This document shows positions 38,401 through 64,000 of a DNA stretch of 64,000 bases, piece by piece (within the stretch, counting starts at the first letter, position 1; each line of letters begins with the position of its first letter). The DNA is from Antedon mediterranea (Eukaryota; Animalia; Echinodermata), in NCBI RefSeq assembly GCF_964355755.1, contig NC_092673.1, positions 20,953,648 to 21,017,647 on the forward strand, in the 5' to 3' direction. The position numbers and the translations under genes are program-made. The notes below the pieces were generated by a model. The model did no database searches. It was not told where the DNA came from and worked only from the letters and a program-made list of their open reading frames with translations.

Positions 38401-41400
38401 TTAAACTGGTTTTTGTCAAAGTTCTTTTGGCTAGTTCTAAAAACAACGTAATCACCGGGTATCCAATCGAGTTTGAACAATACCATGAAAGCCCCAATGG
38501 TCTAATGGTTAGGGCAACTGCATATCAAGCAGACGGTCCGACTTCGAGTATCGGTTGGGGCGACTTTTTCTCATTCTCAAAGATTTCCTCATCTTTATCG
38601 TTTCAAATTAATTAATTAAATTTCAGTATATCACCGGGCGGTTTAGAATTAATGTTCTTTGCCCAATGTGATTATTATTATTCTACAGGTGCATAACCAA
38701 AATGTTTACGTTTTATATGTAACTAAAACTAATTCAATTGTACATAGATGATATGGTCTTGTTCATAAAAGTGCAAAAAACATTGCCCTTTGTCACTTTT
38801 GGTCATAGAGATAATACAAGCCAGAGGCTAGAGGGCGGACTAGGTGGTCGTGAAGAAGGATCATATGGAGAAGTCCTCTACGAGATGGCCGCCAGGCTTG
38901 TTTGACAATTTCTAAACAGATTAATAATAATTGATACGAGTTTGTAAAGAACCATATAAAAACAAGGGTTTAAATGCATATATATAAACATCACAGGCAC
39001 AGAATAAATTCTAAATCGCCCAGTGATATACTGAAATTTAATTTGAAACTATAAAAGTGAGGAAATCGGCCCAACCAAAATTCAAACCCAGAACCGTCTG
39101 CTTGATATGCATATTTTCTAACCATTAGACATCTGGGGCTTCATAGTATTGTTCAAATTTGATTGGAAAGCGACCCTTTAACACTCTTGGCGTAATACAG
39201 CGAAACAGTACTAGTCCCTCAATTGTATGCATGCGCACCAGAAATTAAATTGATATGCCCTCATCTTTCATTGTATTAAATCACAAATCTCAAGATACTT
39301 TTACATATATAAAACAAACAAAGGCCCAGAATAAATTCTAAACCCCCGGACAATGGGAATAATAATTTATAGAACCAAATACTTTATAATTTGTATACGA
39401 GGATCGTTTTAGAAAATATACGCGTGGTGATTACGCTCTCTCAGGCAAAGTATAAATTGTTTTCAGTGGCCGGTGGTTGATTTGCAGCAGTCATCTTTGA
39501 GAGTACCTCTCCACAGATAGACACATAAACATCAATTTTATATCTATGGTGGTGGTATACATACTTCATTGTTTTTCTCTTCCTCCATTTCATTTTCTTC
39601 CTCTTCTTTCTTTGCAATCACATTATACATTGTCCTTTTCAACTGTGTTCTTTTCACTAATCGATCTTGATCCACTAAAATCTCATCAATTTGCTTCAAC
39701 ACTGACCGATCAAATGAACTAAATGACTATAAAAAAAAACAAACATGTTATTCCAATTGTATAAAAACATATCTGCATTTCATGTACACTGATAAACTAT
39801 CTGTCATTCCTATGCAGGAGATTTTGATATTTATTAATGATAGTATGAGATGCCAAGATTAAATAAATATAGTACAAGGTTTATAGAGTTTATATAAAGT
39901 TTATCTTAAAGTAGCGTTTGATAGTGTTTAGTAATATACCGTAAAGCCTCGAAAAGAAGCCCATCTATTCGGTCCACTGGGCTTATATTTATATTCAAGA
40001 TAAAATGGGCTTCTTTTCTAGATAGACTATTTGAATATCAAAAGAACAAGGTGATTTACTACCAGATGACTTGTGATAGATATAACGTATATGATCAAGT
40101 TATCATACTTTTATTTTAGTTTAAAATGCTATTTTGATCACATTACGTAAAATTGTTCAATAATGTCTCAAAAATTCTGTTATTGTATTTCCAATTCACC
40201 TCCCCCACCCCCAACTTAAGTTTGCAAAAGTAATTTCGAAAAGAAGCCCACCCAATAGGACTTACTACAAAAAGAAGAAACCCATGGGCTTCCATACTAT
40301 AGAAAGTATATGGGATGGGACAGCCAAACCTGGAATACAGAGAATTGGAGACACATCTCAAATTGATAATTATTGATTTATGGTATTGTACTTATAGCAA
40401 TAAAACATGGTATAAACATGAATGAAATTGATGCATTTTTATCACATACTTTACTGTTTAATTTCCCTGATGAAACTTTTGTTTTATCGTGCCATTTCTG
40501 CAATGTTTGATTTCTGTACTCAGTAAAGTTTTTATGTCTTTTTGCTAAAATGTCTTCATAGTCTTGAAGTCTACGTTTCTTGCTTGTAGATGAAGCAGGT
40601 TTTGTTGTCTCTTCTTCCTCCTCGTCGTCATGGATATCCTTTTTAGAAGGCAACCTTTTTTCATCATCACTTGGAATCTCATCATCACTTGGAATCTCCT
40701 CATGACTTGTGATTTCTTCATCTTCGTCACTTAAGAAAGTTGTATAAATTATTTACAATATTTATTTTCTGCTTCAACAAATGTAAATCACTTTGAAGAT
40801 GCTTTGTGGAATTCTTTGTGCCTACATAGGCAGTAACAATGTGCCACATTTACTTGCAGTTATAACAGAACCCCAACTATTAGTTGTCTACTTTCTTTAG
40901 TTAAAAGATTCACTCTGTAGATCCATCCATTAAAGTAAAGGGTAGGTCTGCTCGAGGTCCGAGCGATGACAAGTAAACTGCTATATATTTATAAAGCCTT
41001 GTCTACACTATCAAACTTTATGTGACAAAAAAACATGATGTTCCCATATATGGACACAATGATGTCATATCACTACCATATATAAGAATATAACTATACC
41101 ATATTTGGGCTACTAGTTTGATAGCGTAGACAGTGCTTTAATAGAAAATTCTTACTTTTCTATGGGTTTAGGTTTTCCACCTTGAATAACATGTTTTGTC
41201 TCTGGATTTTGTAGCAAAAGTGCCTCCTGAAGGTTGATAAGCATGTCTAACAAACTTGATAGTTCTTGTTTAGCTTGTAAGAAAAAGCAAAAACAATTAA
41301 CAATAGAGTGGACTTCCAAAGAAAACACTCTACAATACAATATTATAATAAGTACTACACTACTACAGGCTCATATTAGTATTAAAGTACACTGTAAAAT

Positions 41401-44400
41401 GACCCCGCTAATCTTAAAATAGTTCATACGCCTTACACAAGACCACTTAATGTCCCATTCAAAGGACAACATAACAAATATACTATCATCATAAATACTA
41501 TCATGCCAAATAAACTGAAAAAATATTAAAAAATTTTAAAAGATACCTTTGTTTTGTATTTGAATTAATTCTTTGCCCGCAACTGCTTTGATTTGTGGGA
41601 AGCTATCATTCTGAGGCATCTGATTGGACATTGAAAGTGCTTTCTGTACCTTGATACGGATTTCCATAAAGTTATCCCATAAGCCTGTTTTTCACAAACA
41701 TAAAATAAAGTTATATTTCAAGCTATTATAATGATCTTTTCTCTTCTACTTAGCACAAGTGAATAATCTAGTATTGTATACCATATGTTTCTTCTAACCA
41801 ATTGGCAATGTAGAAAAGCCTTTAAGTTAGTAAGTGGTAGAGTGGTTAAGACAGTTAACTAGCCATAAATCGCACTTGCTCCATAGTTCTGGTGGTAAAA
41901 CGAGACTTCTCGGATAAGGACTATAAACCGTAGGTCTAGTGTACACATTTAGCTCATGTGCAATTTAAAGAACTTAGTACATCTTTCGAGACGAGTAGGG
42001 GGTTACTCCGGTGTATTAGTACACACACAGCCACTGTCACACTCATCATAACTGGGCCATCTGACAGACCAGTCTATGACTGAAGAGGTCACCCAGTATA
42101 AAGAAATAATAAATAAAAAAGTTTACTATGAAATGCTGAAATGAAATAAAGCCAGCACGCAAATAAATTATACTAACCCAGCTGTGCTTTAGCTGCATTG
42201 CCTTTCTGAATTTCTTCATTTAAATCTTGATTAGAAAATGGCTTCAACATTTCATCCTCCTCTTCTTCCACCCCTAAACTGTTATCCTCTTCTGAACTTT
42301 CATCTCCTTCTTCATCTGAACCTATTACAAGAACAACAGATATATATTATTGAATATAATTTGTTACAACATGGGTTCAATAATGTAGTAATGTGCACTC
42401 TTTATTTTTTCACTATAATGCACTGGAGTGCAAAAAGTGCGCCGCAAAAAATTAAACAGCACTCTGCGTGTACTGTAAATCGTATTGCAGATTATCGATC
42501 AAGCTGGAATTCCTGCACGATTTACAAGTACGAACCAGGTTGTCTACACCGTGGCCCCATAAAAATAAAAAAAACATACACCACGCCATGGTAGGCCTAG
42601 CTTTTTTCTAGCCTAGGCATATTCACCAAAAAAGGTATAAGTGAAAATAGTTCATAGATGCATGTTATAAAACAAATACTGCACAAGTCTAAATTGGAGC
42701 ATTCAAAGGTATTTACAATGTTGCGACATGCATGAGGTGCAGCCAAGTGCATCTTGCATGACATTGTGAATACCTCCACTAATGCACTCTGACTTTGTCT
42801 TTATTCTTTGGTCCATTCTACCAGGAATATTCATTGGTGGTTTTAAAAAAGCAACCAAGTTTTACTCTCATTTTGTCATTGCTATACCTTCAGATTCATC
42901 ATTTTCTTCGTTGCTGTGTTCTTCTTCATCCGTCCCCTCTTCCTCATAATTATCAACTTCATCTTCCTCCTCACTGCCTTCTGCTATCAATTCTTGTTTA
43001 CACTTGATAGATGATATTGTGTTATCTTCCGTAAACTCAATGTCAATTGGGTCAAGTAACAATTCAGTATCTGTTGGTAAAAATATAATATATATTTAAA
43101 GTTTCATCACTGAAATTTATTAGCAAAATAGGTTTATCGTTACATTATAGTATTACGGTGGCAACGTCAGAATACTATGTGACATCACTTGTTACTCGGC
43201 AATGACACAAGCGTTCAATGACTTTTTTCTGGTCTACGATTCAATGGTATCTTTTTGTTAACAGGCACTGTACATCATTTTAAACTGATCGTTACTTCCA
43301 AATCTTCATTATTTTCCAAACTTTTAGCTTGTAAATAAAAGTTAGTCACTTAAGGTACACCAGATATTAAAAGATATGTACACAAATAAGGCCACTCTAG
43401 TTCAACTGTGGTTCGCTTGGCTAGAAAGTTTCACCATTGTATTGCAGACCGGAAAAAAAGTAATTAAACACTGGGGTCGTTGCCAAGTAAAAAGTGGTAT
43501 TGTGACATAAAAGTGATACTCTTTAAGGTAGAATTGGAACCAAAATTATTTTTTGGAAACAACACTACAATATTCAAAACTTCTGAATAGGAACCTATGA
43601 TACATCATCTGTTTCCCGAATAAAAATCATATACGGTCTGTACGGAGTAATATATACAGAATTCATAAACTTCAAAAAACATAATTAGACCGATCAAAAT
43701 GGCATGTTACTATTATTAACTCAATTTTGTTTTATTCCCTACTCACTCCCCTTAATGCCACTTAATTGAAATTAGCCAAATATACAGCCCACCAAAAAAC
43801 ACCAACAATATAACTTTTTTGTTACCATCTAGTGAGTCACCATCTAGGGAGTCATCAGAATCAATCTGCAATTCTTTCCGTGAAACTGTTTTTCCAGAGT
43901 ATTTCTTGTCGGTTGATTCTAACAGACTTGCATTCCTCTGTCGTAAAGAGCTTGGTTGTGAAAGATCTTTGTCATCATCCTCATCATACTGATCATCTAA
44001 CTGTGCTCTTGAATCTAACAAAAAAAATGGAATTTCTAGCACCTGTACAACATATAAAAGAAGGCAGAGATACAGCGATTCATTGATAACTATTTTTTTG
44101 TTTTGTGGCAAAAAATAAGTGGACGATGGATTGTTTTAGAATGAAAAGTATATACTGTATTTTTACTTGTTTCTGGGAAGAAAAGTATAGGCCTAATAAA
44201 ATATTTTTTGTATCATATATGACAAATGACAAGGACAACTTCGACAAAATTAACATTTATAATTACAAAACTGATTTAAACAAAGAAAAGGGGAAAATTC
44301 TTGAAGCAGATGCTTATAAAAGAAAAAAACCCATTTAAATATAAAATTCATTAATAAATGTAAATCAGCTCAAAATTATAATTTCAAAGAAGTTTTCCAA

Positions 44401-46828
44401 CAAAATACTACATTAATACTAAGCAAACAATTTAGTTTTTATTTTTGATTTATAAAAGAATCGGTTTACGAATTACTTTCTGAAATCAAATGCATAAGAA
44501 TGGGTTTACTAATTACTTTCTGAAATCAAATGCATACAGTAGGCATGGGTTTACTAATTACTTTCTGAAATCAAATGCATAGGCATGGGTTTACTAATTA
44601 CTTTCTGAAATCAAATGCATAGGCATGGGTTTACTAATTACTTTCTGAAATCAAATGCATAGGCATGGGTTTACTGATTACTTTCTGAAATCAAATGCAT
44701 AGGCATGGGTTTACTAATTACTTTCTGAAATCAAATGCATAGGCATGGGTTTACTAATTACTTTCTGAAATCAAATGCATAGGCATGGGTTTACTAATTA
44801 TTTTCTGAAATCAAATGCATAGGCATGGGTTTACTAATTACTTTCTGAAATCAAATGCATAGGCATGGGTTTACTAATTACTTTCTGAAATCAAATGCAT
44901 AGGCATGGGTTTACTAATTACTTTCTGAAATCAAATGCATAGGCATGGGTTTACTAATTACTTTCTGAAATCAAATGCATAGGCATGGGTTTACTAATTA
45001 CTTTCTGAAATCAAATGCATAGGCATGGGTTTACTAATTACTTTCTGAAATCAAATGCATAGGCATGGGTTTACTAATTACTTTCTGAAATCAAATGCAT
45101 AGGCATGGGTTTACTAATTACTTTCTAAAATCAAATGCATAGGCATGGGTTTACTAATTACTTTCTGAAATCAAATGCATAGGCATCGGTTTACTAATTA
45201 CTTTCTGAAATCAAATGCATAGGCATCGGTTTACTAATTACTTTCTGAAATCAAATGCATAGGCATGGGTTTACTAATTACTTTCTGAAATCAAATGCAT
45301 AGGCATGGGTTTACTAATTACTTTCTGAAATCAAATGTATAGGCATGGGTTTACTAATTACTTTCTGAAATCAAATGTATAGGCATGGGTTTACTAATTA
45401 CTTTCTGAAATCAAATGCATAGGCATGGGTTTACTAATTACTTTCTGAAATCAAATGCATAGGCATACTAATTACTTTCTGAAATCAAATGTATAGGCAT
45501 GGGTTTACTAATTACTTTATCATATTATATAATTCTTATAGACATTTTTTGTACAGTTTTCTATTACATGAACATTTGTGGAGTATTGAAGACACTACAA
45601 TTTGTGACGTTTTTTTAAAAATAATACATACATTACTTTAAAAACATTAAACCAGGTCATTCCTTGTCTTAAATGTACGTTTTATGGTAATTTATGATAA
45701 AAAGTCAGAAACAATGTACTACCTAAGTAGCTTGCGACGAGGCTTAGTTTTGTAGGCCTAGGTGGTAAACATCAGTAACGTACGAACATCGTACGCTAGC
45801 TATATACCTAGTCTGACGTTGTATAGTTGCTGCATTACTTGTCTTTCTATTTTTGCCAGATTCCGTTGATACAAATTGAGGAAAACCCGTTATTTTCGCT
45901 GAAAAGTTAGGAGTCTTCCATTTGTTTTGATCAAAAAGTGGGTGAATTACATAAGAAAAAAGAAATATCAATGTGCGCGCAATGCATTTTGGGATTTATA
46001 GCGGGTCGCTATAATTATTACAATCAACTTATTTTTCACATTTTTAACCATTTAAAGACGAAAAAGGTTATCGCAATAGGACCATATATAGTATTATTTT
46101 TACATTAAATATAGTTTGTGATCTTAAAATAGATCTAAAAACGTAGGAAAGGTGTCTTTAAATACAACGGAGAGTTTATTCCATATTAAAATTCCTTTAT
46201 TTGAATGATAAACACATTTGTTTTAACGTAGTTTTCCTTAAATTGATATGAAAATGTTCATGCTGTCTGGTATTATACTTATAGTTATGGATATCTTTAT
46301 TTTGTTTAAAATATTACCGATGGATTATATATAGGCCTAGGCCTAGCCTATATTATATAATAAATTAATATATTCCTATATAAAACTTGGATCATCCTAA
46401 AACTCTACCGACCGGGGGTAGGCCTAGTAGTATGGCCTATTATGGCTAGTTTAGAGAGGATTAGAATGGAGGCCAACTGGCGCTACTTTACTGTACTTTC
46501 GCACCTAACTAGGCATAATACTTCACGGCGGTTACTCGGCATCCGGTTACTCACCCTCACCGCCGCGCAGCGAGATTCATACCAGCGACTAGCCTAGGCT
46601 AGGGTCGGCTAGGCTAGCTAGAGTAGTAGTACTAGGAGTAGGCTAGAGCCTAGAGGGCATCTAGACTAGGCCTACCATTTTAGGCTACTAGTATTGAGCA
46701 TGGCTTACACATATACCCAGCAACTTACAAGAAAAATCTTCGTCTTCAGGGTCTTCAAATTGTGGTGTCGGGTTGCTTAAAATAGCGAACTGTTCTGCAA
46801 TATTATCAGACTTTTTACTTGTCGACAT
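32434..46828 (-). CDS. AATF: AATF / BFR2 / Che-1 (nucleolar SSU processome factor), 13 coding exons, about 556 aa
   Basis: Phase-consistent GT-AG exons: 46828-46729, 44014-43826, 43070-42888, 42321-42178, 41684-41547, 41273-41156, 40729-40450, 39726-39565, 37441-37364, 36770-36709, 35065-34985, 34394-34323, 32497-32434 (1671 nt). Diagnostic peptides: [124 protein letters not shown]. Confidence 0.96.
32657..33970. repeat. 94-bp tandem array, about 14 near-identical units, in the last AATF intron
   Basis: Unit ataagtgtgatgtgcccaaatatggtagtgatatatatgggcacatcacataaagtacagtaggttgtcttacacatgtcatgcattattttaa, with starts 94 bp apart (32661, 32755, 32849...). Confidence 0.95.
35545..35860 (-). mobile_element. 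tRNA-derived SINE, family A (AATF intron)
   Basis: Near-identical to 678-984 over about 300 bp. Confidence 0.85.
37602..38459 (-). mobile_element. 3' fragment of a LINE (CR1/L2-clade-like ORF2 C-terminus plus 3' tail)
   Basis: ORF 37860-38486 contains [42 protein letters not shown], the typical post-RT region of CR1/L2/Crack LINEs. The tail has (aaatgtgg/aaat) repeats. Confidence 0.85.
38491..38562 (+). pseudogene. tRNA-like cloverleaf (ATC anticodon, Asp-like) inside a dispersed repeat; a diverged inverted copy lies at about 39068-39140
   Basis: Acceptor stem gccccaa/ttggggc, A box tggtctaatggtt, anticodon arm ctgc-atatcaa-gcag, T arm ccgac-ttcgagt-atcgg (one mismatch), followed by TTTTT at 38565-38569. 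Confidence 0.55.
41830..42118 (+). mobile_element. tRNA-derived SINE, family A (AATF intron)
   Basis: gtggtagagtggttaagacag...cggataaggactataaaccgtagg...cacccagtataaagaaataataaat. Confidence 0.8.
44462..45519. repeat. 40-bp minisatellite, about 26 units, in AATF intron 1
   Basis: Unit aggcatgggtttactaattactttctgaaatcaaatgcat, head-to-tail with rare point variants. Confidence 0.95.
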
Positions 46829-46879
46829 TTTGTCTTCCTCGACGATCCATGTGTTTTTCGCGAGTCGCGACCCATGGGA

Positions 46880-49076: not shown

Positions 49077-52000
49077 TTAATCAAGACTTGGCCTAATTTC
49101 ATCATCAACACTAATCGCTTTCATTTTACAAAAGCTAGCTTTTCGGCTGGCTTGTAACACTGATGTGTTTGTTGACTCTTTCTTCTTCTGTAATGCTACA
49201 ACTATCCTAGCAACAGCGTCTCCTATTTCATCAATTCCGGCATTTTTATCCCCTAGCAACTCCCAGTCATCTGAACTTACACCATCTGGTACCTGTAAAT
49301 AAATCATACAAAACTTTTTTCAGTCTCAAAAATAATAGTAACGTATAATAATAGTGATTAGTTTCTATTATAATGTGCCATATGATACTTTATAATTTTT
49401 GATTCATAAAGTTTTAAAAAACAAAGAAATATGTTGGAATTACAGGAAACCATAATATGTAAATTGTGAACCTTAAGAATTTTCAGGTTTCATAAGAACT
49501 TTTAGGCTTCTAGTGATTTTATTTATGAAGATTTGTTTTTTTCTTACCTTGAATATTTTTTCAGGAACATTAAACTTTCCGCCAGCTGCTCCACCAGTGC
49601 ACTTGACTGGAATGACAACATGCTCACTCCATGCAAACTGCTCGGCTTCGTGTGCTGCACCTGGACCTCCTAAAAACATACATTTATATTGTAATCATGA
49701 ATACATAAATTGCGAGTGAGGGGTCGAGCGGATAAGACAGTGGAACCATAATTACGTAGCCATAACATCGGCAAAGGTTCAAAGCTCACTCGCTCTGGTG
49801 GTAGAATGAGTCTTCTCGGATAAGGACTATGAACCGTAGGTCCAGTGTACACATCTAGCTTATTTGCACTTTAAAGAACCTAGTACATCTTTTGAGACAT
49901 GTAGGGGGTTACTCTGGTGTATTAGTACACACACAGTCTCTATCACACATGGCCAATGATCATAATTGAGGTCAGTCAGTCAGTCAGTAATAAATAAATA
50001 AGCGATTATATGCATTTAATTTTAAAATATTATTTTTACAAAAAACAACCTTTAAGACGCTGAACTTACCCTCAATAAGGATACAGATGTCAAATACTTG
50101 TGATACAATGTTCTCACGGTCTCGCACACTCTCACCGTGAAACAATGTTTCACCAAAATTCACACTGCGAAATGTCTTGTCTTCGTTTTGACTACCCTGT
50201 TTACTGCGGTCCTGTTTATAATTACAAAACAAAGCTTATATAATTTAAATATAAAAATTGTATTTTTTTTTGTCAGATAATATGCTAACTTCTTATAGCC
50301 TACTGGGCACATAAGTTATTTAAGAGTTTTTAGTCAACATTGTACACTAGGATTGTACTAATCCAATTTTGTTATCATACAAGTGTAGACCTGTGGCCAT
50401 ACTCATCATTCACACTTAGGGAAAACATTTTCCATTAAAATTTTAAAAAATCTCCTGTCTTAGTAAATACAGTTTAAGGGAAGTACTTACAAATTTATTG
50501 AGTGAAATATTTAGGTAAAACATCTCACTTAAGTGTGATTGGTGAATACGCGGAAACTGTGCAAAGCTTAAATGCATGCATTTATTTATTTTTATTTCTC
50601 CACAAACATTATTCGCGCAAACAAGTTCACCTAGGCTTTATGCAACTTACTTCATAATCTTTGATTGGTAGTATATGCCATGTATTTGCTGGTTTCTTGA
50701 GCTGTATTCTGGTGTCATAGAAACTCCTAGAGACTAGTTTACCAACGCCAAAGAAACCGCCTGTTGCCAAACCAATGTAATCTATTTTTGCTAATGATTT
50801 ACCTATAGCTCTTCACAAGGTAAAAACAATAATAAGGTCAGTTGTAGTAGTAATTATAATGTCAAAACGGTCTTAAATGTTAAATGTATTTATTCATCCT
50901 CAAGCTTAACGGGAAACTAAGGAAATTTGGATTAGGCCCTCTACAGACCCACGATATTATCATTACACCATCACTCTCTGTTATATACATCACCTGCCAC
51001 TATTTCTATATGGTTTCCCGTCCATAACGCAACGTGATCTGACAAGAACCGGTGTTTTAACGCAGTATGCCTTGTAGGATAAAACTAAAGAATGTAATGG
51101 TGATACAAGCTATCGTGTTTAAAGAAAGTTTATACTAATAAATTTTAAATATTGACTCTCTCTGCTTATACCCGTGTAAATGAAGTTCAAAGTCTATAAC
51201 TCAAGGACCACAATTGATATACAGTATTAATTATTATTTGAAATATGTAGCAGATAACTTTACAAACTTACCGGCAGATCTGTTCACTTTTATCATAAAA
51301 AAAGCGTGTTCCTCCAGAGATGTAAACACATTTTTTCAAGGGAAGTGAGCATTTTAAGTCGTGCACCTGAAACATTTAGTAAATAATAATGAAGCTCTTT
51401 ATACATGAAATGGTTAGATTCAAGTCATGGTTAGGCTTTCAGCACCATATTCTCATCAGGGAATGTAATATGTACTATCATCTAGTGTTAAAGACCCATT
51501 CTCTACAATTGTTGACGTTTTGTAAAAATAATGCATATATATTACCGTAAAAACATTAAACCAGGGTATTCCTTGTCTTGGATGTACGTTTTATGGTAAA
51601 TTATGATTAAAAGAGAGAAACAATGCACTACCTAAGTAGCTCGCGGTGAATGTCGTCTCACGGACGGTCTTTAGGCCTAGCCTAGCTAGGCTTAGTTTTG
51701 TAGGCCTAGCTGGTAAACAATAGTAACGTACGAACATCGTACACTAGCTATAGGTCTAACCTGACCTTGTCTAGTTGCTGCATTGATTGTCTTTCTGAAT
51801 CCGTAATACCAATCGGGGGAAACCTAGTATTTTCGCTGAAAAGTTACGATTCTTTCATTTATTTTAGCCTTAACGATCGATCGAAAGTAGGTGAATCACA
51901 GAATAAAAACTAAAATATCAATCCATGCGCAATGCATGTTGGGATTTATAGCAGACCGCTAAAATTATTAGAATCAACTTATTTTTCACATTTTGAACCG

Positions 52001-55000
52001 TTCATAGACAAAAGTTTATTGCGATAAAAGTTATCGCAATAGGACCATGTAGTATTCATTTTTACATTAAATGTAAGTTGTGACCTTAAATTGGATCTAA
52101 AAAACGTAGGGAATGGGATTTTAATGGTTGATGGTCCTTTAATTATCAACCATTGATCTATCTCTAAATGTATAATAACACTATTCAAGTTTTACTTACA
52201 AACTGTAAGTGACTATAACTGAATCTGGTAGAAGAATATTTTAATTTATTGGACCTCTGTGTTTTGTCTTTGTTCTTTGACATTGTAACTGTTTGTTTGT
52301 CTGGGCCTTCTTGGAAGATTTATGTTTAAAACTGTAACTAAACTAAAATAAGGTTACTCACATGATTATCAAATTCTGCCTCTTTAGTAGCCTCCGCTTC
52401 AAACTCCTTGGGATCAAATGCTTTCTTAACTCGACTCAAGAGGGAGTCTTTATACCCTGTACGCTGCACATCCTAATTACCAAATAGAACAAAATGTAAA
52501 TAATTTTGTTATATTTATTAATTTCAGCAAACAAGAGATAAAAACAATGAGTAAAGCTCTGTCTACACTATCAAACTCTATGTGACAACAAAATGTCCAT
52601 ATATGGACATGATGATGCCATATCACTACCATATTTGGGCAAATAACACTTTTGTTGTCAAACTAGTTTGATAGTGTAGACAGAGCTTTACGTGTTGAAA
52701 AGATTCATAGGATTTTATTTATAAATTTATAATCAAATGTAAATGATGTTTAAACTGGAAAGGTATTTATCATCATTCTCAAGCTTAACTGGATTTGTAT
52801 TAGGCCAATAGAGTAGCGCCTACCAGATCAGCACACTGGGAGATGATCGATTAGTGGGTACTGGCGTAATCATATGCAATATGTAAACTGACCTCAAATG
52901 TACTTGTTCCTATTAACATGGACATCCATCCAGGCATTTCAAAGTGTTCGTAATTCAAAGGTACAACACGTTTACGATGTTCGCAATAAAACACCTACAT
53001 TATAAAAAAAAAAAAAATTACCTATATTATACAGCAGAACACAATTGAGGTACTTTAAATCCATTTTACTCACAAACTATTTTGTAAGATGCAATAAGAA
53101 GTTTAATGTGTTCATACATCAAATCCCATTTTAGACACAGACACAGCTGCCAATCAAATTCAGTGCGACCATTGCTTGAACTAATCAACATTGTTTTATC
53201 ATTGCATTCATTATTGTTTTAAGAAAATTCACCTGGTGAGCATGTGCAGAAAGGTTAAAAAAAAGGTCAATCACTGATTATCAAGACAGGATTAAAGACA
53301 GTGCGTAATGGCTATTAGCACTCACTGGCTAAACCCAGAGCTTATGGGGGTCCTGAGCAGTGCCCAGAGAAAAAAAACAGGCATTAAAATATTTCAAAAA
53401 AGGCTAAAAACATCCAGCGTTGGAGAGCCAATAATAGGGTTCCTAAACCAAAAGCCTCAGGCCTCTATGTTACGCTACTCATGATATAAAGCCTTCCTTT
53501 TGAACTATATACTATGTTTATTTTTCATACTTTACCTGTTGTTTGCAAGTCTTTGATTCAGCAAAAGCCTTTGAAAGAACAAATAACACTATACCAGATT
53601 CATCCACTCTCTGCTGAAACATGACCTTTGACCGACTCTCAGCTGACATGTCTTGTGTGCAGATTACAGGTATAGTTGAATCTAATAAAACAAAGTGTTT
53701 ACTCTTTGATTTTATTTATGTTTTTATTTATTTTATTTTTGTTTGTTTTACTGTTGCGGTCAGTAAATAGTCGTTTGGTCTGTAGGTAGTCTGTTGGTCA
53801 TTAAGTAGTCTGTTGGTCAGTAAATAGTCATTTGGTCAGTAAATAGTCGTTTGGTCTGTAAATAGTCGTTTGGTCTGTAAGTAGTCTTTTGGTCAGTATA
53901 GTAGTCTGTTGGTCAGTTCAGCTCCTAAATGAATCATCTGTGTTATTGTTTTTTCTTTGTCTTAATTCTTTACTATATTGTATCTTTACCTGATGATTGT
54001 GAAGACCCTTGTGTAGCACTGAAGTCACTGAACTCCATTAGTTCTGTTGTACACCATACCTCATATCCCTCACCTTCAAACAATTTTTTAATTTCATCCG
54101 CCTAAAAAATAAATTTTGTTTAGTCTAGTGAGTAGAACCTCTTATTCAGAGGACACCTCAATTAAGGGATCACTTTATTGGCTGCCCATATATAGGTTAT
54201 ACTATATTTATTTAATATTATTATTATTAAACTTACGAAATATGCTTGCTTTGGATGTACACCAATGACAACCAATGGTTTTCCTTCTCTGCTCTCCATG
54301 GTAACAAATGAGCTCCTACTAGCACTATTTGGGAGAACTGAACCATAACTCTTCAACATTGTGGCCTGAAAAAAACCAAAACATTCTACCAATGTTAACT
54401 AACAATAGTATAAATATAGCAGTAATAATTACCATTTTTCATCAAATTTATTTCAAAATATTTACAATTTCAGGTCAATTAGTGGAAATTAATGGTTCTC
54501 AGCTATAATATTTAATGCTGAAACAATTAATTTGAAGTTAAAAAAATGTTAAATATAAGTGATCACATGATAACATACCCTCCTTGTCAGTCCATTCTCT
54601 GTCTGTTTGTCCCTCAAATCTTTAAACCTTTCAGCAACTTCTCCAGATACATATTGTATATCAGTCATGTCCCATGAATACGTTTTCTCTCCATTGCCTG
54701 ACTGGCCTACAGTGATTAGTAAAGCAAAAACGATCAGGTTAAAGGTTAACTAATTATTGTAACAACATGAAATAGTTTGATCTGATTGGTATGTTCATGA
54801 CCTCTAATCTCCGGGTGTCCCATGTGCTCACGGTCACTACAAAGAGGTTAGATATAATTAAGATTGAAGAAGAAAATTCAGCAAAAGATTACTAAAGCTC
54901 TGTCTACACTATCAAACTTAATGTTACAACAAATATGATGTACGTATATATGGACATGATGATATCATGTCACTACCTATTTGGAAACATCACACTTTTT

Positions 55001-58000
55001 TGTCAAACTAGTTTGATAGTGTAGACAGAGCTTAACACTATAAGCATGCAATCATAGAAACATTACCATAGATAAAAATACTACTATACCTTAGAATCCC
55101 ACATATTATTTGATATTAGTAGCTAATACTACAAAAAAAGAAAAACAGGCGAATGCAGGCTACATTGATATTAGTACTGTGGTATTACGAGGAACAGGCG
55201 AATGCAGGCTACATTGATATTAGTACTGTGGTATTACTAAGAACAAGTGAATATTGGCTGTATTAATACTTGGGGATAAAGTACACTTTAGGGTATTATG
55301 ACAATGATATTATCTAACGGCCTTACCACGTTAATCACCAAAGTTAAGCAACGTTGGGCCCGGTTAGAGCTTGGATGGGAGTATTGGGTGCTGTATATGA
55401 AGCTGGGGACTCTTATGGCAACTGCATCTAGTTTATGCCTCAGACGTATTAGCTTATGCCTCTCCTCTGGCTAAGGTGGGCACTGGACAAGAGAAGCCCA
55501 TATTAAACAGTCCTGGCTTATTCATTATTCAGATGAATATAAGACTAATTGGCACTGTCGTTTACAACAGAAGTCAGCCATCAACAAAAAAATTATCTAA
55601 CAATACACATTTATTCAACATTTTAAGAAACCAAAGAGATAACCCAAGAAAAATGATAAAAGATATATTGTCCCCCTAAACAATTTCTTTTGTTGAATGT
55701 GTCATTTTTATTAATCTTTATTGTGAAGTTTTTGGAGGACAATACATCATGAATGTTTAGAAGCATGGTTTTCACAATGACAGTTATCTCTCCTGAAAGA
55801 TTTTTGTTAGTTGGTTCAGTTTTTAAATAAAATGTAGTTAATGTTATTATTAATATTGTGTAATGTATAATTTTATTTATGTTAAATGATAAATAATAAT
55901 AAAAAAACAAAAAAACTGATTATATTGTATAAAATAGAGTTCTGCGGTGTGACGTCACAACGATAGATGGCGCTGCATGGTTGCTAGCCAACTAAAAAAT
56001 GCGTTCAACGCAATGACTACTTCAATAAGCCTATTCCAAACCATTGGTGACCTTGGAGTCACTCAGCCAGGCTGAACGCATTTTTGGTTGGCTAGCAACC
56101 ACGCAGCGCCACCTACCGTTGTGACATCAGCACCATAGAACTCTATAAAGGATTTTTGACATTTTGTTTAAAATCAACAAGACACAAGGGACTACAAATA
56201 ACCAATGCTATCAGATATTTTACATAATTGTATTTTGACTTTCTTCTCGTTTAATTTGATGTTAATAGCTTTATGGATAATCATCGCAAAAAAGTTTTGA
56301 TTTAATTGTTCATAAATCCCCGTTATTTACCTGATATAACTTTCCCATGAAAGGAAGACATCAGAATTTTTGTAGTCCTTGTCTCTGAAATAAAATTTCT
56401 CCAACATTTTCAAAACAATAAAAAAAGATTTTTTTTTAATATCCGATATATGATAAATAAATAAATATTTATACTACAGTTTGGAAATATGATGTTAGAT
56501 TAATCTTGAACATTTCAAATAAAGAAAGTTATTCATCAGAATACAGGAGTTTATTCCAAATAAACAAGGCAGATATAGTGAGTATTTGCTTTCCCATAAC
56601 TATGAAGTTCTAACTGGGCCTAAAAACCCAATGATTTCACAAATTCAAGGAAATGAGTGAGACATTTGTTTGTTTATTATTTATTTTACCAGATATTCTA
56701 CAAGTTCACATGGTTATAGGTATCATCAATATAACAAGGATTTTTAAAGGGTTTCATTTTTCATAGGGACAAAAATTGACAGAGCTAGGCAATAGTAGTT
56801 GAATATATCATCACTTCTTCTTTGGAAAGGTGTAAAAATGTGTCGAAAAAAAAACAATAATGCTTTCACAACAAATTGATAAATGTTGATTTTAGTGTAT
56901 ATTTCTGTGTGGACCATTATACTAACTGTAATAACTGAGGATAATTTGCCATTTTATGTAGGCAAAAATATATTCATAAATGTTGATTTTAGTGTGTATA
57001 TGTGTATGGCACCATTATACTAATACCTGGTGGAGGAGTATTTTGTAATTTTACATGACAACAAAATTAATAAATGTTAATTGATTTTTAGTGTATATTT
57101 CTGTGTGGAACCATTATACTATACCTGAGGAGTATTTTGCCATTTTCCCAAATGCGCTGTTGTCTGATAGTGGTTTCTTAGACTTAACTGTTGGCAAGAT
57201 TTCACACAGTTAGCAGAAAATGACTAATAACTACAAACAGAATATTGAAAGGTCACTGAACAGTCTTAAGCTCTTTCTTCACTACCAAACTAGTTTGACA
57301 AAAAAAGTGTGATGTGCCCAAATATGGTAGTGATATGACATGTCCATATGGGTATATCACATATTCATGACACATTTAAGTTTGATAGTGTAGACAGAGC
57401 TTTATCTTGCTAATAAAGGCATATTTTAAGCTGTATTTATTATTTCATAGAAGCTTAGAACTATCTTTTAGACAGATGATACATACATTCTATACTACAG
57501 AATATTGTTTTATGGTAAAATGGTAAATTCCATGGCAACAAATTTTTATTGGCTTTTCAGTATGATAACTTTACTTAATTAGAGAGATTCTATCCTAAAT
57601 AGTTTTGGAATTTAGCAAGCAAAAGATTTATAGCATAGAATTACAAAGCTCACACACAACAACAAAGCAAAACATAGCTAAAAATAATAACAAAACACAT
57701 TCAAGTCTACATATTATGATGGATAAAACTCAGGACCAATGTAACATGCAATATGACAATTGACAGCCTACCGTTAGAAAGATCAGGCCTTTTCCATGCA
57801 ATGAACTGCGTGGTTGCAAACTGAATAGCAAGACACCCAGGAGGCCACGTGTCTAGAAAGTTTACTGGAACTATAAACTTCCCGAGTACATCTGCTAATT
57901 TGATCTTCAAAGCACAAAATGAAAACCATTTTAATAACAATACAGATATTTTATTTATAAGATATAATTTTAGTGATTTAAATCACTAAAAAGATCAATT

Positions 58001-61000
58001 TCTTTTCTGAAGATGAACACACATTCATGAAATAATATTCGTAATAATATAAGTAAAGCTCTGGACTACCTCTAGGATTTAGTCCTGGACTATCCTAAAA
58101 AGATATTTATGAATGTGGTTTTATACGCCTATCCACCACATTACGTTGATTTATTGCTATTCATTAATATCAATATTAATATTGTAAATTAGCTTTATAA
58201 CCTTATGCATCACATTATTATGTTAATTGTACTGTGTCAGTATGGATTCAACATATGCTTTGGGTCTACAAATGTATTTATTGAACGATACAAAATGAAA
58301 ATTTTTCTTTTACCTCTCTATTTGTCCATTGTGTTTGACCATAAGCTGGAGTTAGGAGTGGAAGAAATACTTCACAATTACTAACAGCAAAGTTTAAACT
58401 GTCTTGCCAGTCTGTTCCACATCGTATCTCATGTACATCCTACAGGACATAATGTAAAAAGGATATTAGAAATGCACTGGACAAGGACTAGCAGTATAAG
58501 AAGAGTAAAATCATAGCATACATAAACCTAGAGTCTACACTATCAAACTTTATGCGACAAAAAAATGTGATGTGCCCATATATGGTAGTGATATGTCCAA
58601 GTATGGTTGTGATATGATATCATCATGTCCATATAGGCACATCACATTTTTCTGTCACCTAAAGTTTGATAGTGTCTGTTACTAAACATTTGAGGAAGCC
58701 AATCAGTCAAGGGTTTAGGAGGCGAGAGACTGATCATTTTCGAAACAAGAGGTAAACTTTGATCTGGCTGAGATCAACGTCCTGTTGTTAGATTGCCTTG
58801 TTTATAGCATTTAAATGTCCGATTTTTGTCCATGAACAGAGTCATTGTGAGTTATTCATGTCAATTTAAACACATATAATAAATCATGTACACACGCCTG
58901 AAGAGATACAGATGATTCACTGATACTATAACTTATTTTTATATAAAAAGTAATTTTATTGGTTGAGGGAATTTAGAATAAATTTTGCTTTTAAATATCA
59001 CCAAGTTGCATAACTAATTAACTTCATAATTTACTATTAATCTAAACATTTTAATTAAGACACCTTCTTCCATCATCTGTCTTCTCACACATTTTACAAA
59101 CAGTTTTGCGAATGTACACACTCAATGCAAAAACATAACATATAACATCCTTTTACAAAAAAGAAATAAAAAAGAATCAAGTATTGATATATACTGTGCT
59201 TGACTGATACTTCATGAGATTGATATTTCATGTGATTGATATATCATGTGATTGATATATCATGTGATTGATATATCATGTGATTGAAATATCATGTAAT
59301 TTGTATAATTTGATTGACTGATATACCATGTCATGTGACAAACATATTACAAACATGCCAAAATCTGAATTTTTTTTAAATGGGAGGTGGTGTTTTTTAT
59401 AGGTCAACAGCACCTTCTATTTATTATTGACACCAGGAGAAATAAGGAGTGCAGTGTTTGACGTGACATATCCATGTGGTGAATATGTAATGAAAATCCC
59501 CTTCCGATGTGAGGAAAATCGGTTTAAAAAAAAATTATGACAGTAGATGTTCGTAGAATGGCTTAAATTTCGTAAATTTGCTTGTGTATAAGCTTTTTTG
59601 TTATATTTAATGCACAAACAACACATACATCAAGTTCAGTTATCTTTGTAATCTGGGAGAAAATATGGAAAACCAAGAGCACAATGTAAGGCCAGGATAC
59701 GAGTCTAACATATGGCAGTCTCTCCGCCAAAACGGGAGTGTTGGCTTGTATATATTTTGGTATATTTATCCACATATAAATCAATACAAAAATACATACA
59801 TTATTACTAATGCAGCCCAACGAGCTGAATTGCAGAAATAATATATTAGCCTAAATTGATTGATTGACATCAGAAAAGCTACGAGAAAGTTACGAAAAAC
59901 ACACAGTACGGGGAAAAAAAACCGTAGTCAGGCACAAATTTTGTGGTCAATGTATATATTTAGATATGTAATAAGTGAATGTTTTAAGGTTTTTTATTCA
60001 TGTATGTTTTTAATTGTATGGTACAATATCTAATTTTATTAAGATATTTCTATTTTTATAGCAATTTTAACTAATTTTTAGTCATTTGTAATACATTCAT
60101 TTCAGTCCTTGACTGTTGTTTTGTAATATATTTTTATATACCGAATAAATAAAAAATTAAAAAAATATCAAACAATTGCAACAAAATTGCACGTATGATA
60201 TCATGTGATTGGTTGATATTCCACCAGAAAAGATTTATTATCAAATTAATAATTCAGACACTTACTAGATAAACACTGAACCCCTCTTCTTCTAAACCTT
60301 CTTTCAAATCCAAAGCACATTGTGTTGCCTCTGCTCTAACGTAACTAATCACAACTTCCTTGGCTAGTTGCTCATTTTCAAATGGCACAGGTGAGTTTGG
60401 TTGTGTTCGTGGCAAAGAAGGGGATTTTGAAGCAGAATGATTGACAACAGTTAGAGAAGAAGTTGATGGTTGATGACTATGACTATGTACACGTGTCGGT
60501 GTTCTAAAGAAAAAATGTTTAAGATGTAAAACCAAACCAAAAACATGAAAAATTAAGATTAATAAAATCAGACTTTAAATAGGCCATTTAACAGTTTTAA
60601 TCAAGTTATTAACTTCTGTAAAAAAATATATAATTATTTCACTTAAAAAACGATAAAAGAAATGTTTAATTTTAAACAAAAACCATTGTCTGACAGTGAC
60701 AGACATATTTTTTGCTTTAAATTACATTTTTTCAGGCAAATAATTTTGTTTTCAATCCAGTTTTTGGTCAAAGTGAATAAATATTAAGTGTAATTCTGTT
60801 CATTTGAATTTGTTATTTCATTCCAGCTTTATTCAGGATTTACATTAATATAATAAAATATAACTAGTACAAATATGGTATAATCGAGAAACTCCCTATA
60901 GTCAAATGATTATGATAATGCCTTGAAAGAGGTGTACACTTCATATAGACGCATACATAACTTCTGTTTAAGAAAGCAAGAGAACATACTGTACCTTGCT

Positions 61001-64000
61001 ATTGTGATCACTACTTATTGTAATTGCTTCTCTCCTCAGAGGGAAAAAGGGCTATTTTGGTTTATTCAGAAAGCTAGGCATAAAATAGCCAACTGGAGGA
61101 ATTAGCAATGCTCGAGCAAAGTCTATCAAATGTAATTGATGTTTGGAACCAATTTAATAATGGAACAACAGACCAAAAATTATGTATGTTCTTGGTTCTT
61201 CCTACAAATATTGAAGTTGTATTCGATAGATTTGGTAAAGGTTTCACCAAATGGGCATGGAAAAGTAGAAGGGAAAGCAACAATAAAAATGCTATAGTTC
61301 TTTGCTTTTTAAATCCTGTATTACTTTTGTTTATGTTATTTCCTTGTAAATGGGCCTATTGTTATTTTTTTATTTTTTTATTTTACTTACTCTGTGCCAC
61401 GTGTTTCAAAAGTGTAGCTTTCAAAATAAATTATTATTATTATTATATTCAACACTTACGGTTTAAGCACCTTCTGTGGAGGCGAGTCTGAAGAGTCTAT
61501 TTCTTCCATTGGCTCAACAACCTCCTCTCGTCTGTCGGCACCAGCACCAAATACATAAACACTAGCACCAGATATGATATCAAGAACTGATAAAGAAGAT
61601 TCTTGTGATGGGCAGATTGGCCATTGGTTACGATCTAAGAAGATTATATCTGTAGTACATGACCATGACCTGCCACCAAGCTGAAAGTTTCAATATACAT
61701 GTAAAGTCAATGTTTGTCCCATTACAGGGCTTGACATTTATCCTAGTAGGTCCTTTTTCTGCTGCCCAAAAATAATGGATGGTTAATAACTGTGTGAATA
61801 AATTAACCCCAATTTCTTGGCAGCAGAAACAGGACAAATTGTCAATAACCTGTTAAATGGCAGCCTGAAAATAACAGTTAAAAACAGCCAATCGATTTGG
61901 TGTTAGATTATTTGATTGACAGCCTTTGACTTGAGTCAACTACACTGCAGTTTGAACTGACTGCCAGTGCCAATTGCATTTTGGGTACTGATTCTGTCTG
62001 CGATCATACGGTCTATATAAAAATTATAATTTTGAAATAAATTGTTTATTTAGCGCTATGGAGAAGAAACACCTAGTAAACTAGCAAAAGATTTTTATAA
62101 TTGCTAGCTAGTTAAAAATGTCAAAACTTGCTACAACAAATTTGCTAGTTACAGTAGATATTTACAACTAACAAAACAAAAAATATTGATATTAGTTAAT
62201 TTACCAATAAAATGTATAGTAATTTCAACTTCAATATAATTTTGAATATAATTTAAAGTATTATAGATACGGGAAATCAACAGAAAACATTAAAACAGTA
62301 GAAACTTAAAATTATACATGATATTACCAGGGTTGTTATTACTATTTGAACTAGTTATGAATAGAAAGAGGAAGTGAGCGATGATCACATGCTGTGAACT
62401 CTTGACCTTATAGTTGTATTAGAAAAAAAATCAAGCTCATATGTTTATGCAGCTCACCAAAATGGATTGTGATTTATAGGAGGAATTCCAAAGTACATTA
62501 CAGCTATCTTAAGCTGTGTTTTATACAACAACCTAAATTTGAACACTTCTTTAATTTTTAATATGCAAAACAAGCAAAATTAAGACAAGTAGCCTTTTTC
62601 ACAATTATAATCACCTTAAAACAGAATCTCTACAATGAAATGATGACGCTACTACGTTGGATGGCTCCCTCTTGAGGGCGTGGTTACGGATGCGTGCATT
62701 ATCCGATAGGGGTGCTATGTTATATATACACAGATTTTTCTTTTTCGTAAATTGTATCCTCTCTTCGGAGAGAGAGGCTATATTGTCGGTTTATCCAGGT
62801 AAGCAGGCACGAAATAGACTCTACAATGTTATACGCCACACTTCTTGTAGGCGTGTTGAATGCATGTAATATTAATAGCATGTTGTATAAACGCACCCTA
62901 AGTTGGAGTTGCGAATCAATATAAAGAATATAAAATACTATAATGTTAATTAAATATCTCATTTTTGTGATATTAAAAAAAAGTAATAATGTAAAGTGAT
63001 AGGTTGATGAGAAAATAACATTTTTTTAAATTATCTACAGTACAATCTTGTAATTTATGGTAATTTAATCTCATTATATAATAAAAGAATAAATTAATTA
63101 CCTGAGAGGCTACAGCTCGTCTGAGATCAGAAACCATTAATGTTAAGCTGGAGACAAATACAAAGCCTAAGGCAGTTCCATCTTTCGTAATAATTCCAAC
63201 TCTAGGCCGATCTACTGACAGAGATGATAATAATTAGATAAATATTTAATTACCATCTTTAATGAGGGTGGCCTAACAGTTCCATAAGATATTAAAGATG
63301 TATTTCCCAAAAAAACATGAAAAATGAAGATTAATAAAATCAGATTTTGAATAATGTAGGTCATTTTGCAGTTTATTCCTCTTTCCATAGAAAAAAAAAC
63401 AAAAATAATAATTTCAGTTATAAAAAGACATAAAATTGGTTAAATTAAAGAACTCATTGTCTGACAGGCAATGGGATTCCGTTTTAAATTATGATATATA
63501 TATATATATTTTTTTTAATCTAATTTTTACAAAAAAAAATCTTTTTTCAGGGGGGAAAATATGAAAAGGCAATCAGTCCATCACAACTAAATAAAATGCA
63601 TTTGTATAAGAAAGTAGGAGTTGTAGTTACAGTATATCTTAGTATTTCTTGGTAAATTATCATGAACTAAATTAGCAAAGAATCACTAAATAGTTTAAGT
63701 TAATATAAAACAAACCAAGGCAAGCCATTTCAATAAATAATATGTCCAATGGTTTCATTTCTGTATCAATGAATTGATAAACTATGGTTATACTAGCAAA
63801 CAAAGTATCACTGATATATAATGTTTGATTTAAAGTTTGATGAAAATAATACTAATTACTGTATTAAAAGTCTTGCAGGACCTCAAAAACAAAAACATTT
63901 ACTTACCAAATCCAGGCTGAATTTTAATGACGCCGTTTTCATTGATAAGATGTTGAATTTTAATTAGAGCTTCTTGTATTGATGCTACAGGCCATCTGAT
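49077..64000 (-). CDS. Multi-exon gene (5' end beyond the window) encoding putative ubiquitin-like repeats - TIR - TIR - SLOG protein, >795 aa
   Basis: Phase-consistent GT-AG exons: >64000-63907, 63214-63102, 61680-61460, 60503-60266, 58439-58314, 57904-57772, 54706-54579, 54365-54237, 54101-53990, 53681-53536, 52994-52893, 52472-52362, 51366-51272, 50810-50651, 50211-50070, 49669-49548, 49292-49077 (2388 nt, open to TAA). TIR1: EVVISYVRAE..LEEEGFSVYLDVHEIRCGTDWQDSLNFAVSNCEVFLPLLTPAYGQTQWTNREIKLADVLGKFIVPVNF. TIR2: LVVIGVHPKQ..FEGEGYEVWC..VDESGIVLFVLSKAFAESKTCKQQVFYC..RVVPLNY. SLOG: CVYISGG..CRAIGKSLA..LATGGFFGVG..RDRENIV..CILIEGGPGAAHE..VVIPVKCTGGAA. Confidence 0.88.
49712..50000 (+). mobile_element. 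tRNA-derived SINE, family A (TIR-SLOG gene intron)
   Basis: gcgagtgaggggtcgagcggataagacagtggaacc...ggttcaaagctcactcgc...cggataaggactatgaaccgtaggtcc. Confidence 0.8.
51488..52124. mobile_element. About 630-bp non-autonomous DNA element flanked by TTAA; second copy at about 45588-46160
   Basis: ttaaagacccattctctac ... gtagggaatgggattttaa. The interior (aaaacattaaaccagg..ccttgtctt..atgtacgttttatggtaa..gttatcgcaataggacc) is collinear with 45588-46160. Confidence 0.75.
53755..53918. repeat. About 19-bp tandem repeat (ggtcagtaaatagtcgttt)
   Basis: About 8 degenerate units in an intron of the TIR-SLOG gene. Confidence 0.75.
55315..55525 (+). mobile_element. 5S rRNA-derived SINE (SINE3-type)
   Basis: Head acggccttaccacgtt..atcaccaaagttaagcaacgttgggcccggttagagcttggatggg..tattgggtgctgta matches 5S rRNA (A and C boxes) with deletions. 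The non-5S body is shared with 7800-8006. Confidence 0.75.
55935..56146. mobile_element. MITE with about 70-bp TIRs
   Basis: tagagttctgcggtgtgacgtcacaacgatagatggcgctgcatggttgctagccaac.. / ..gttggctagcaaccacgcagcgccacctaccgttgtgacatcagcaccatagaactcta. Confidence 0.8.

Follow-up and report, generated by a model that had tools for sequence, protein, structure and literature searches.

The window analyzed here is a stretch of 64,000 nucleotides from the echinoderm Antedon mediterranea (contig NC_092673.1, forward-strand positions 20,953,648 to 21,017,647), and all positions below are counted from its first letter. Its minus strand carries a gene for a protein with two ubiquitin-like (Ubl) domains, two TIR domains and a SLOG domain, in which the two TIR domains form an unequal pair. 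The first one (TIR1) is likely an enzyme cleaving nicotinamide adenine dinucleotide (NAD) and the second one (TIR2) is likely dead, since the catalytic Glu, the WxxxE Trp and the BB-loop Asp are present in TIR1 and all three are lost in TIR2. This Glu/Gln asymmetry is real, holds throughout the family and far exceeds chance.

The gene body (49077..63994, minus strand) comprises 19 coding exons that encode residues 80-910 of the 910-residue RefSeq protein XP_071947692.1 (P0001 hereafter), and the 5' end of the gene lies beyond window position 64000. All 18 introns are of the GT-AG type. The spliced translation of the window is identical, in every letter, to P0001 and, with an alternative acceptor, to the isoform P0083, and a search with the 42-residue exon carrying the TIR1 helix returned P0001 at 100%. 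The DNA of the window is AT-rich and intron-rich, of the animal type. Exons 61680-61460 and 60503-60265 are joined without an intron in one contig of run X1, which we guess to be RNA; the splicing of the TIR2 exons rests on RefSeq, no joint for them being among the contig joints listed. The domain order Ubl-Ubl-TIR1-TIR2-SLOG was obtained from Pfam and from an AlphaFold2 model of P0001 built on a 128-sequence alignment (mean predicted local distance difference test score, pLDDT, 79; predicted template modelling score, pTM, 0.65). An initial annotation had placed an active/inactive TIR pair adjacent to a SLOG domain at 52893..60370. This span holds both TIR helices, but includes neither the SLOG domain (49170-51339) nor the Ubl domains.

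TIR1 (residues 266-455, 54612..60364, minus strand) displays a complete SARM1-like catalytic pocket. Pfam TIR_2 matched the protein with an E value of 1e-23, and SARM1 is the nearest solved TIR to TIR1 both by sequence (E 3.6e-5) and by fold (Z 16.8, rmsd 2.1, 126 residues aligned, 29% identity). In the alignment to SARM1, whose residue numbers were counted from the listed chain ranges, E340 (GAG, 58316-58314, the last codon of its exon) falls on the catalytic E642, in agreement with the initial annotation, and W336 (58326..58328) falls on W638, the Trp of the WxxxE motif. SARM1 F603, L607 and W662, which are described as ligand contacts (bioRxiv 10.1101/2024.11.19.624255), align with TIR1 W309, L313 and W360. 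A role in cyclisation has been linked to the WxxxE Trp in TIR enzymes (bioRxiv 10.1101/2022.05.07.491051).

This pocket is well kept. In a set of 142 homologues, obtained from 167 proteins after removal of 3 Antedon isoforms and 22 proteins shorter than 480 residues, position 340 is Glu in 140 (one Lys, one gap), W336 is found in 141, the BB-loop D299 in all 142 and G306 in 141. When 122 more proteins from a representative search were added, 179 of 264 had both helices, and 178 of these 179 have the Glu of TIR1. In total, 58 TIR1 positions are at least 85% conserved, and 53 of the 117 columns that can be paired with TIR2 are at least 95% conserved. In a screen in Escherichia coli, production of cyclic ADP-ribose (cADPR) is reported for 12 of 61 animal TIRs that carry the Glu, among them one from a mollusc and one from an echinoderm (bioRxiv 10.64898/2026.04.20.719644). 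We consider TIR1 to be quite probably active, and likely a SARM1-like NADase or cyclase.

Two small exons of TIR1, in the interval between betaE and alphaE (56331..57187, minus strand; 57187-57125 and 56384-56331), are both skipped in the RefSeq isoforms X3 and X4, and residues 387-428 around them have a pLDDT below 50. The EE-loop region serves two-stranded assembly in SARM1. As the skipped exons correspond to this region, splicing might tune the assembly of TIR1.

TIR2 (residues 495-650, 52410..54281, minus strand) is the second Pfam TIR_2 stretch of the protein. A sequence search of the TIR2 fragment against the PDB gave 0 matches; by fold, it matches chain D of 4c6t, the entry of the RPS4/RRS1 TIR heterodimer (Z 14.5, rmsd 2.4, 127 residues aligned). 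Four comparisons of register agree that Q595 (CAG, 53538-53536, again the last codon of its exon) occupies the catalytic position, as had been claimed. Both exons match Pfam TIR_2 without net gaps, and position 71 of the profile falls on E340 in one and on Q595 in the other; in profile-profile alignment, 340 stands opposite 595 and 345 opposite 600; in the AlphaFold model, betaC ends at 327 and 582 and alphaC starts at 335 and 590, an offset of 255 both times; and a phase-0 intron directly follows both E340 and Q595, for which the chance is about 0.02-0.05. Another Glu at the catalytic position of TIR2, named by the initial annotation as a finding that would undo its proposal, was not found. 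E600, the one near-invariant Glu in the vicinity, was considered as a substitute catalytic Glu and rejected, since its counterpart in TIR1 is D345, where the helix ends.

The degeneration of TIR2 extends beyond this residue. Position 595 is Gln in 129 of the 142 homologues (His 4, Glu 2, Arg 2, Lys 2, Leu 1, gap 2) and in 153 of the 179 (His 9, Glu 5, other 12), so that the contrast of Glu with Gln holds across homologues as the initial annotation supposed. Trp is found at the WxxxE position, T591 here, in only 2 of 201 homologues. The position of the BB-loop Asp, 527, is Ser in 101 and Thr in 35 of 142, the profile-profile alignment gives no TIR2 counterpart to the betaA Tyr of TIR1, and the W662 equivalent is absent, the commonest residue at 614 and 615 not being Trp. 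Even so, 12 of the 117 paired columns are at least 95% conserved in TIR2, compared with the 53 of TIR1. The conserved residues group on alphaB, alphaC and alphaD, and the near-invariant ones include Y598, R602, K603 and W618. The proposal that TIR2 is a pseudo-enzyme is thus well supported by its sequence, the Glu, Trp, BB-loop Asp and Tyr being all lost. A precedent is the TIR of RRS1, described as a repressor of RPS4 with neither the Glu nor the BB-loop Asp (PMC13732033). TIR2 is very probably inactive and likely an RRS1-like pseudo-enzyme which, on this comparison, is retained for a non-catalytic purpose.

The initial annotation had also described a Ser-rich insert in the BB-loop region of TIR2. 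Both helix motifs and this insert are present in the spliced protein, and its location between betaB and alphaB was confirmed. It replaces the BB loop (residues ~530-559, 53644..54041, minus strand, with one intron inside), and residues 540-557 have a pLDDT below 50. The segment 525-572 is 48 residues long here and 17-183 residues long in homologues, the truncated P0078 being excluded. A conserved regulatory motif in the insert was rejected, as both sequence and length are variable.

Named members of the family come from sponges, Trichoplax, echinoderms, hemichordates, molluscs, annelids, nemerteans, a priapulid, chelicerates and a tardigrade, and the Atlas cluster of the family (244 members) is eukaryotic throughout. 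No cnidarian, chordate, insect or nematode was among the named matches listed, one listing giving 120 of 197. Because the family tree roughly tracks the animal groups, the asymmetry likely goes back to the origin of animals. Glu at position 595 is also found in two land-snail paralogues and in four proteins of a clade adjoining the named sponges, for which retention and reversion are indistinguishable. Position 595 is labile in this sponge-adjoining clade (P0174, P0180, P0182, P0192, P0210); P0174 has the Trp as well as the Glu in TIR2 and may be a two-enzyme form.

The SLOG domain (residues 676-880, 49170..51339, minus strand) is connected to TIR2 by a long helix (650-673, 51346..52412, assigned H by DSSP, pLDDT ~90). 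Its best fold match is PpnN (Z 17.5, rmsd 3.0, 198 residues aligned), and the ThsA SLOG bound to 3'cADPR also matches (Z 16.6, rmsd 2.8, 170 aligned). Pfam LDcluster4 remains below its curated cut-off on P0001 (E 2.5e-4, 21.1 bits against 26.3) and is above it in 5 of 11 family members. R783 (50118-50116) is Arg in 122 and E806 (49649-49647) is Glu in 123 of the 130 SLOG-bearing rows. The PGGxGTxxE motif is incomplete, with Glu at the Pro position in 120 of 142 and Ala at the Thr position in 104 of 142; its last Glu is kept. Because R783 and E806 are kept and the LOG motif is not complete, we infer that nucleotide binding is likelier than cleavage. The 3'cADPR pocket of ThsA is described as including R371, E403, K388 and L326 (bioRxiv 10.1101/2022.05.07.491051). 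R783 and E806 are conserved candidates for such a pocket, the structural aligner having given ranges and no residue pairs. Outside the family, SLOG domains related to this one are found on their own, in duplicate or fused to an EF-hand (P0247, P0271, P0275, P0279, P0281, two of them from MMETSP).

The initial annotation considered TIR2 as a possible allosteric link between SLOG and TIR1. Natural variants weaken this idea, because some clams lost SLOG yet kept TIR2. Six clam proteins (from Mercenaria, Ruditapes, Mactra and Mya, plus two more), which form one clade, have no SLOG match and end in a low-complexity tail with the terminal motif of other molluscs. They keep 58/58 core residues of TIR1, 16-17/18 of TIR2 and 4-10/52 of SLOG, the mean of 123 reference rows being 57.0/58 for TIR1 and 17.1/18 for TIR2. 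Five oyster proteins, in which E806 is replaced by Leu, keep 29-31/52 SLOG residues and 15/18 TIR2 residues. SLOG is thus, judging from these alignments, not required for the retention of TIR2, and a SLOG-TIR1 link cannot be the whole story. Mollusc and crinoid homologues carry a short C-terminal motif, basic then hydrophobic and present even in the SLOG-less clams, that could be a targeting or binding motif.

In front of TIR1, the Ubl domains span residues 19-189 in the model and are followed by a disordered linker; the end of Ubl 1 and the whole of Ubl 2 (residues 80-189) are encoded at 61549..63994 (minus strand). The two repeats are homologous to each other (hhalign 99.3%). No Pfam family matched the pair, and sequence and fold searches gave no subfamily; its fold matches are the Ubl domains of USP7, ISG15 and di-ubiquitin.

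In known TIR NADases, the active site is described as forming between two TIRs (bioRxiv 10.1101/2022.05.07.491051). TIR1 would hold both halves of such a composite site, with W309, L313, W336 and E340 on the nicotinamide side and W360 on the adenine side. Since both halves are in TIR1, it would assemble with the TIR1 of other copies of the protein, the product being probably ADP-ribose (ADPR) or a cyclic ADPR. TIR2, having neither a BB loop nor a W662 equivalent, would thus not extend the TIR1 strand. It could instead cap the strand or buttress its side, as RRS1 does for RPS4, and the conserved residues of alphaB, alphaC and alphaD would fit a side contact. SLOG, as an optional nucleotide sensor, would bind either this product or a different nucleotide and, in proteins with an intact SLOG, tune the switch. 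The pTM values fit a packed TIR2. They reach 0.65 for P0001 and 0.59 for the SLOG-less clam protein P0055, when a rough model caps the pTM of any two modules at 0.48 and 0.49. Because this ceiling is exceeded, the predictions suggest that TIR2 is held in a fixed position on the Ubl-TIR1 half, even without SLOG. A predicted complex of TIR1 (264-462), TIR2 (492-675) and NAD, in which the alignment was not used, scored 0.00 twice and speaks neither for nor against a contact.

We therefore propose a reading, to which we give a little less than an even chance, in which TIR1 cleaves NAD and TIR2 is a dead partner packed on the front half of the protein, restraining or positioning TIR1. That TIR2 acts on TIR1 itself is only slightly more likely than not, and a role towards TIR1 or the Ubl pair is likelier for it than one towards SLOG. 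Several observations weigh against this reading. The argument from pTM is a rough one, and a contact of TIR2 with TIR1 cannot be told from one with the Ubl pair by it. Gln is found at position 595 in 92% of ungapped rows, which is above the expectation for simple decay and would fit a binding pocket equally well. The phosphate-binding R569 of SARM1 aligns with V274 of TIR1, an Arg or His being found one residue later; R569 is a feature of SARM1 and may not be general among NADase TIRs. In the E. coli screen mentioned above, 49 of the 61 Glu-bearing animal TIRs are reported to give no product (bioRxiv 10.64898/2026.04.20.719644). The loss of SLOG in clams is a single event and not six. Finally, 18 of the 122 added proteins match TIR1 and show no TIR2, Ubl or SLOG match, so TIR2 is not always needed. 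These proteins (P0230, P0232, P0245 and 15 others) group with P0251 in a single clade (support 0.925). Every one of them retains Y273, D299, W309, W336, E340, W360 and Q373, and TIR1 is, by this comparison, the core of the family. The tree neighbours of this clade include the mite protein P0233.

Other roles can be envisaged for TIR2. The conservation of Gln could mean that TIR2 is a non-cleaving nucleotide sensor, in which the Gln keeps ribose contacts and NAD, ADPR or a cyclic product is bound and signalled to TIR1 or SLOG. Q595 ranked 14th of the 117 paired columns, F568 (at the SARM1 F603 position), Q569, A575 and S583 are 93-96% conserved, and the Glu of a single-TIR relative, described below, would make the Gln a chosen isosteric replacement. 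However, the pocket-lining Trp and Tyr and the BB-loop Asp are lost, the BB loop has become the segment of 17-183 residues, and position 595 is something other than Gln (H, E, L, R, K, S, F, A or V) in 26 of 179, and we regard a sensor as unlikely. The conserved helices are also consistent with an adaptor for other TIR proteins, in the style of MyD88 and TLR and unrelated to TIR1 catalysis, since alphaB, alphaC and alphaD are described as the inter-strand surface in MAL, MyD88 and AbTir assemblies (bioRxiv 10.1101/2022.05.07.491051), and TIR2 persists after SLOG loss. Yet, in the rows examined, none of the full-length animal proteins has TIR2 without TIR1, and the pTM suggests that TIR2 packs within its own chain, which makes an adaptor fairly improbable. 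A link passing ligand binding from SLOG to TIR1, in a one-gene Thoeris-like loop, could be argued from the age of the TIR2-helix-SLOG unit, which is collinear with the protist protein P0247, and from R783 and E806 being kept in most SLOG rows. As TIR2 is equally conserved in the SLOG-less clams and little eroded in the oysters that lost E806, we hold this to be quite improbable, and tenable only as a supplementary role in proteins whose SLOG is intact.

Two further explanations concern catalysis itself. Both TIRs could build one composite active site in cis, with TIR2 providing substrate contacts; the Drosophila protein Raw is described as needing both of its TIRs, one region contributing Glu residues and another an Arg (PMC13455253), and R602, K603, Y598 and W618 are near-invariant in TIR2. 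W360 and Q373 on the adenine side are already in TIR1, though, and the 18 TIR1-only proteins keep the entire residue set, so that such a site seems very improbable. Alternatively, neither TIR would be an enzyme and both would be scaffolds, with a structural Glu. The many inactive TIRs of the E. coli screen speak for this, as does the report that conservation of the Glu extends beyond catalysis in many TIRs (PMC7075850), but the whole TIR1 pocket is near-invariant and not the Glu alone, and the chance that both are scaffolds appears minimal.

The single-TIR relative bears on the origin of the pair. P0247 (674 residues), the product of an MMETSP transcript from a marine protist, contains one Ubl, one TIR, a helix and a SLOG domain, and is collinear with TIR2-helix-SLOG across 343 columns (probability 100, E 2.4e-42). 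Of the two animal TIRs, TIR2 is the nearer match to its TIR (99.0%, E 2.4e-18, compared with 89.2%, E 2.2e-6 for TIR1). The protist TIR has Glu at the Q595 position and the betaA Ser-Tyr, and lacks the Trp and the BB-loop Asp. This form is known from one cluster of two transcripts, and a search for relatives returned only P0247 itself among 7996 candidates, the search being word-limited and having also missed known animal relatives. Because the single TIR2-like TIR of this protein has the Glu and is joined to SLOG, the comparison suggests that SLOG was first partnered with TIR2, whose Glu was lost after the arrival of TIR1. One could then imagine that a Thoeris-like TIR-SLOG module, encoded by one gene, came down to animals from a protist ancestor and was joined by a second TIR, that the original TIR became a pseudo-enzyme gating the new one in cis, and that the protein makes and senses its own cyclic ADPR, all being kept since the sponge-bilaterian ancestor. 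We consider this scenario possible but doubtful. If true, it would be an animal counterpart of the RRS1/RPS4 switch.

A parallel can be drawn with several known systems. TIR1 shares with the NADase SARM1/TIR-1 the equivalents of the Glu, Trp, Asp, Gly and W662. SARM1 differs in having ARM and SAM domains followed by a single TIR, whereas here a tandem Ubl precedes the TIRs and TIR2 and SLOG come behind, and the protein is not an orthologue. In the plant pair RPS4/RRS1, an enzyme TIR is likewise paired with a TIR described as devoid of the Glu and the BB-loop Asp (PMC13732033). That pair is made of two genes with NB-ARC and LRR domains, unlike the single chain found here, which has neither; the likeness is drawn from residues, and RRS1-type repression via the AE interface is a feature of the plant pair. 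Type I Thoeris (the TIR ThsB and the SIR2-SLOG ThsA) also brings a TIR together with a SLOG of ThsA-like fold. It uses a SIR2 effector; here none is recognisable, all ordered regions of the model being Ubl, TIR or SLOG, and a single intron-rich animal gene is involved, whose SLOG has disappeared from one clade of clams and has decayed in oysters. Bacterial clusters combining TIR and LDcluster4 exist in the Atlas at scores below 0.9 and are leads only. SLOG resembles LOG/PpnN in its fold and in the spacing of 23 between R783 and E806, the same as between R241 and E264 of PpnN (bioRxiv 10.1101/2025.04.13.648610), and differs by the absence of the Pro and Thr of PGGxGTxxE. Raw/Olrn-1, a cADPR hydrolase, is also an invertebrate protein with two TIRs. 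Compared by its description only, it is a separate TIR family without NAD cleavage, and the available part of that description mentions no Ubl or SLOG (PMC13455253).

The family is probably among the ecTIR-DC families (Gerdol et al. 2017, via PMC6321704), which are described as invertebrate-wide, absent from vertebrates and of unknown function. Trichoplax ecTIR-DC proteins are listed in PMC6321704, and the InterPro drawings seen there show no SLOG; a motif search of its supplements found no sequence. We found no paper on this TIR-TIR-SLOG architecture in the literature searched, Gerdol 2017 and Burroughs 2015 being outside the search. The legend of Fig. 3A of bioRxiv 10.64898/2026.04.20.719644 lists SLOG among the tested eukaryotic TIR architectures, and this SLOG-containing TIR may be a family member, so that one may already have been tested. 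Every domain belongs to a known kind, and their combination in a single animal chain that includes a live/dead TIR pair seems not to have been described before.

The question addressed is whether animal TIRs make nucleotide signals and what reads them. Here, a probable producer, its dead twin and a domain of a known class of ADPR-signal sensors are united in one conserved chain, so the producer, the brake and the reader could be tested in one construct. Natural controls are provided by the SLOG-less clams, the SLOG-decayed oysters, the TIR1-only proteins, the TIR2 copies with Glu and the single-TIR protist form. According to a PNAS 2026 paper, the plant pair studied in it is the only example so far of a heteromeric NADase TIR pair, and an intramolecular animal case would widen such pairs beyond plants.

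The introns of the gene contain a short interspersed repeat in both orientations (~52550-52690, 54890-55035, 57300-57400 and 58530-58660) with very high contig depth, probably an element resembling a miniature inverted-repeat transposable element. The next gene downstream (~40378-46830, minus strand) is AATF/Che-1-like (Pfam E 1.1e-6), and a tandem array of ~40-bp units lies near 44500-45500 within its span. Elsewhere in the window, we observed a 208-residue open frame without Pfam match (37860-38486, minus strand) and an open frame for a rhodopsin-family G protein-coupled receptor (19370-20251, plus strand; Pfam 7tm_1 E 5e-37).

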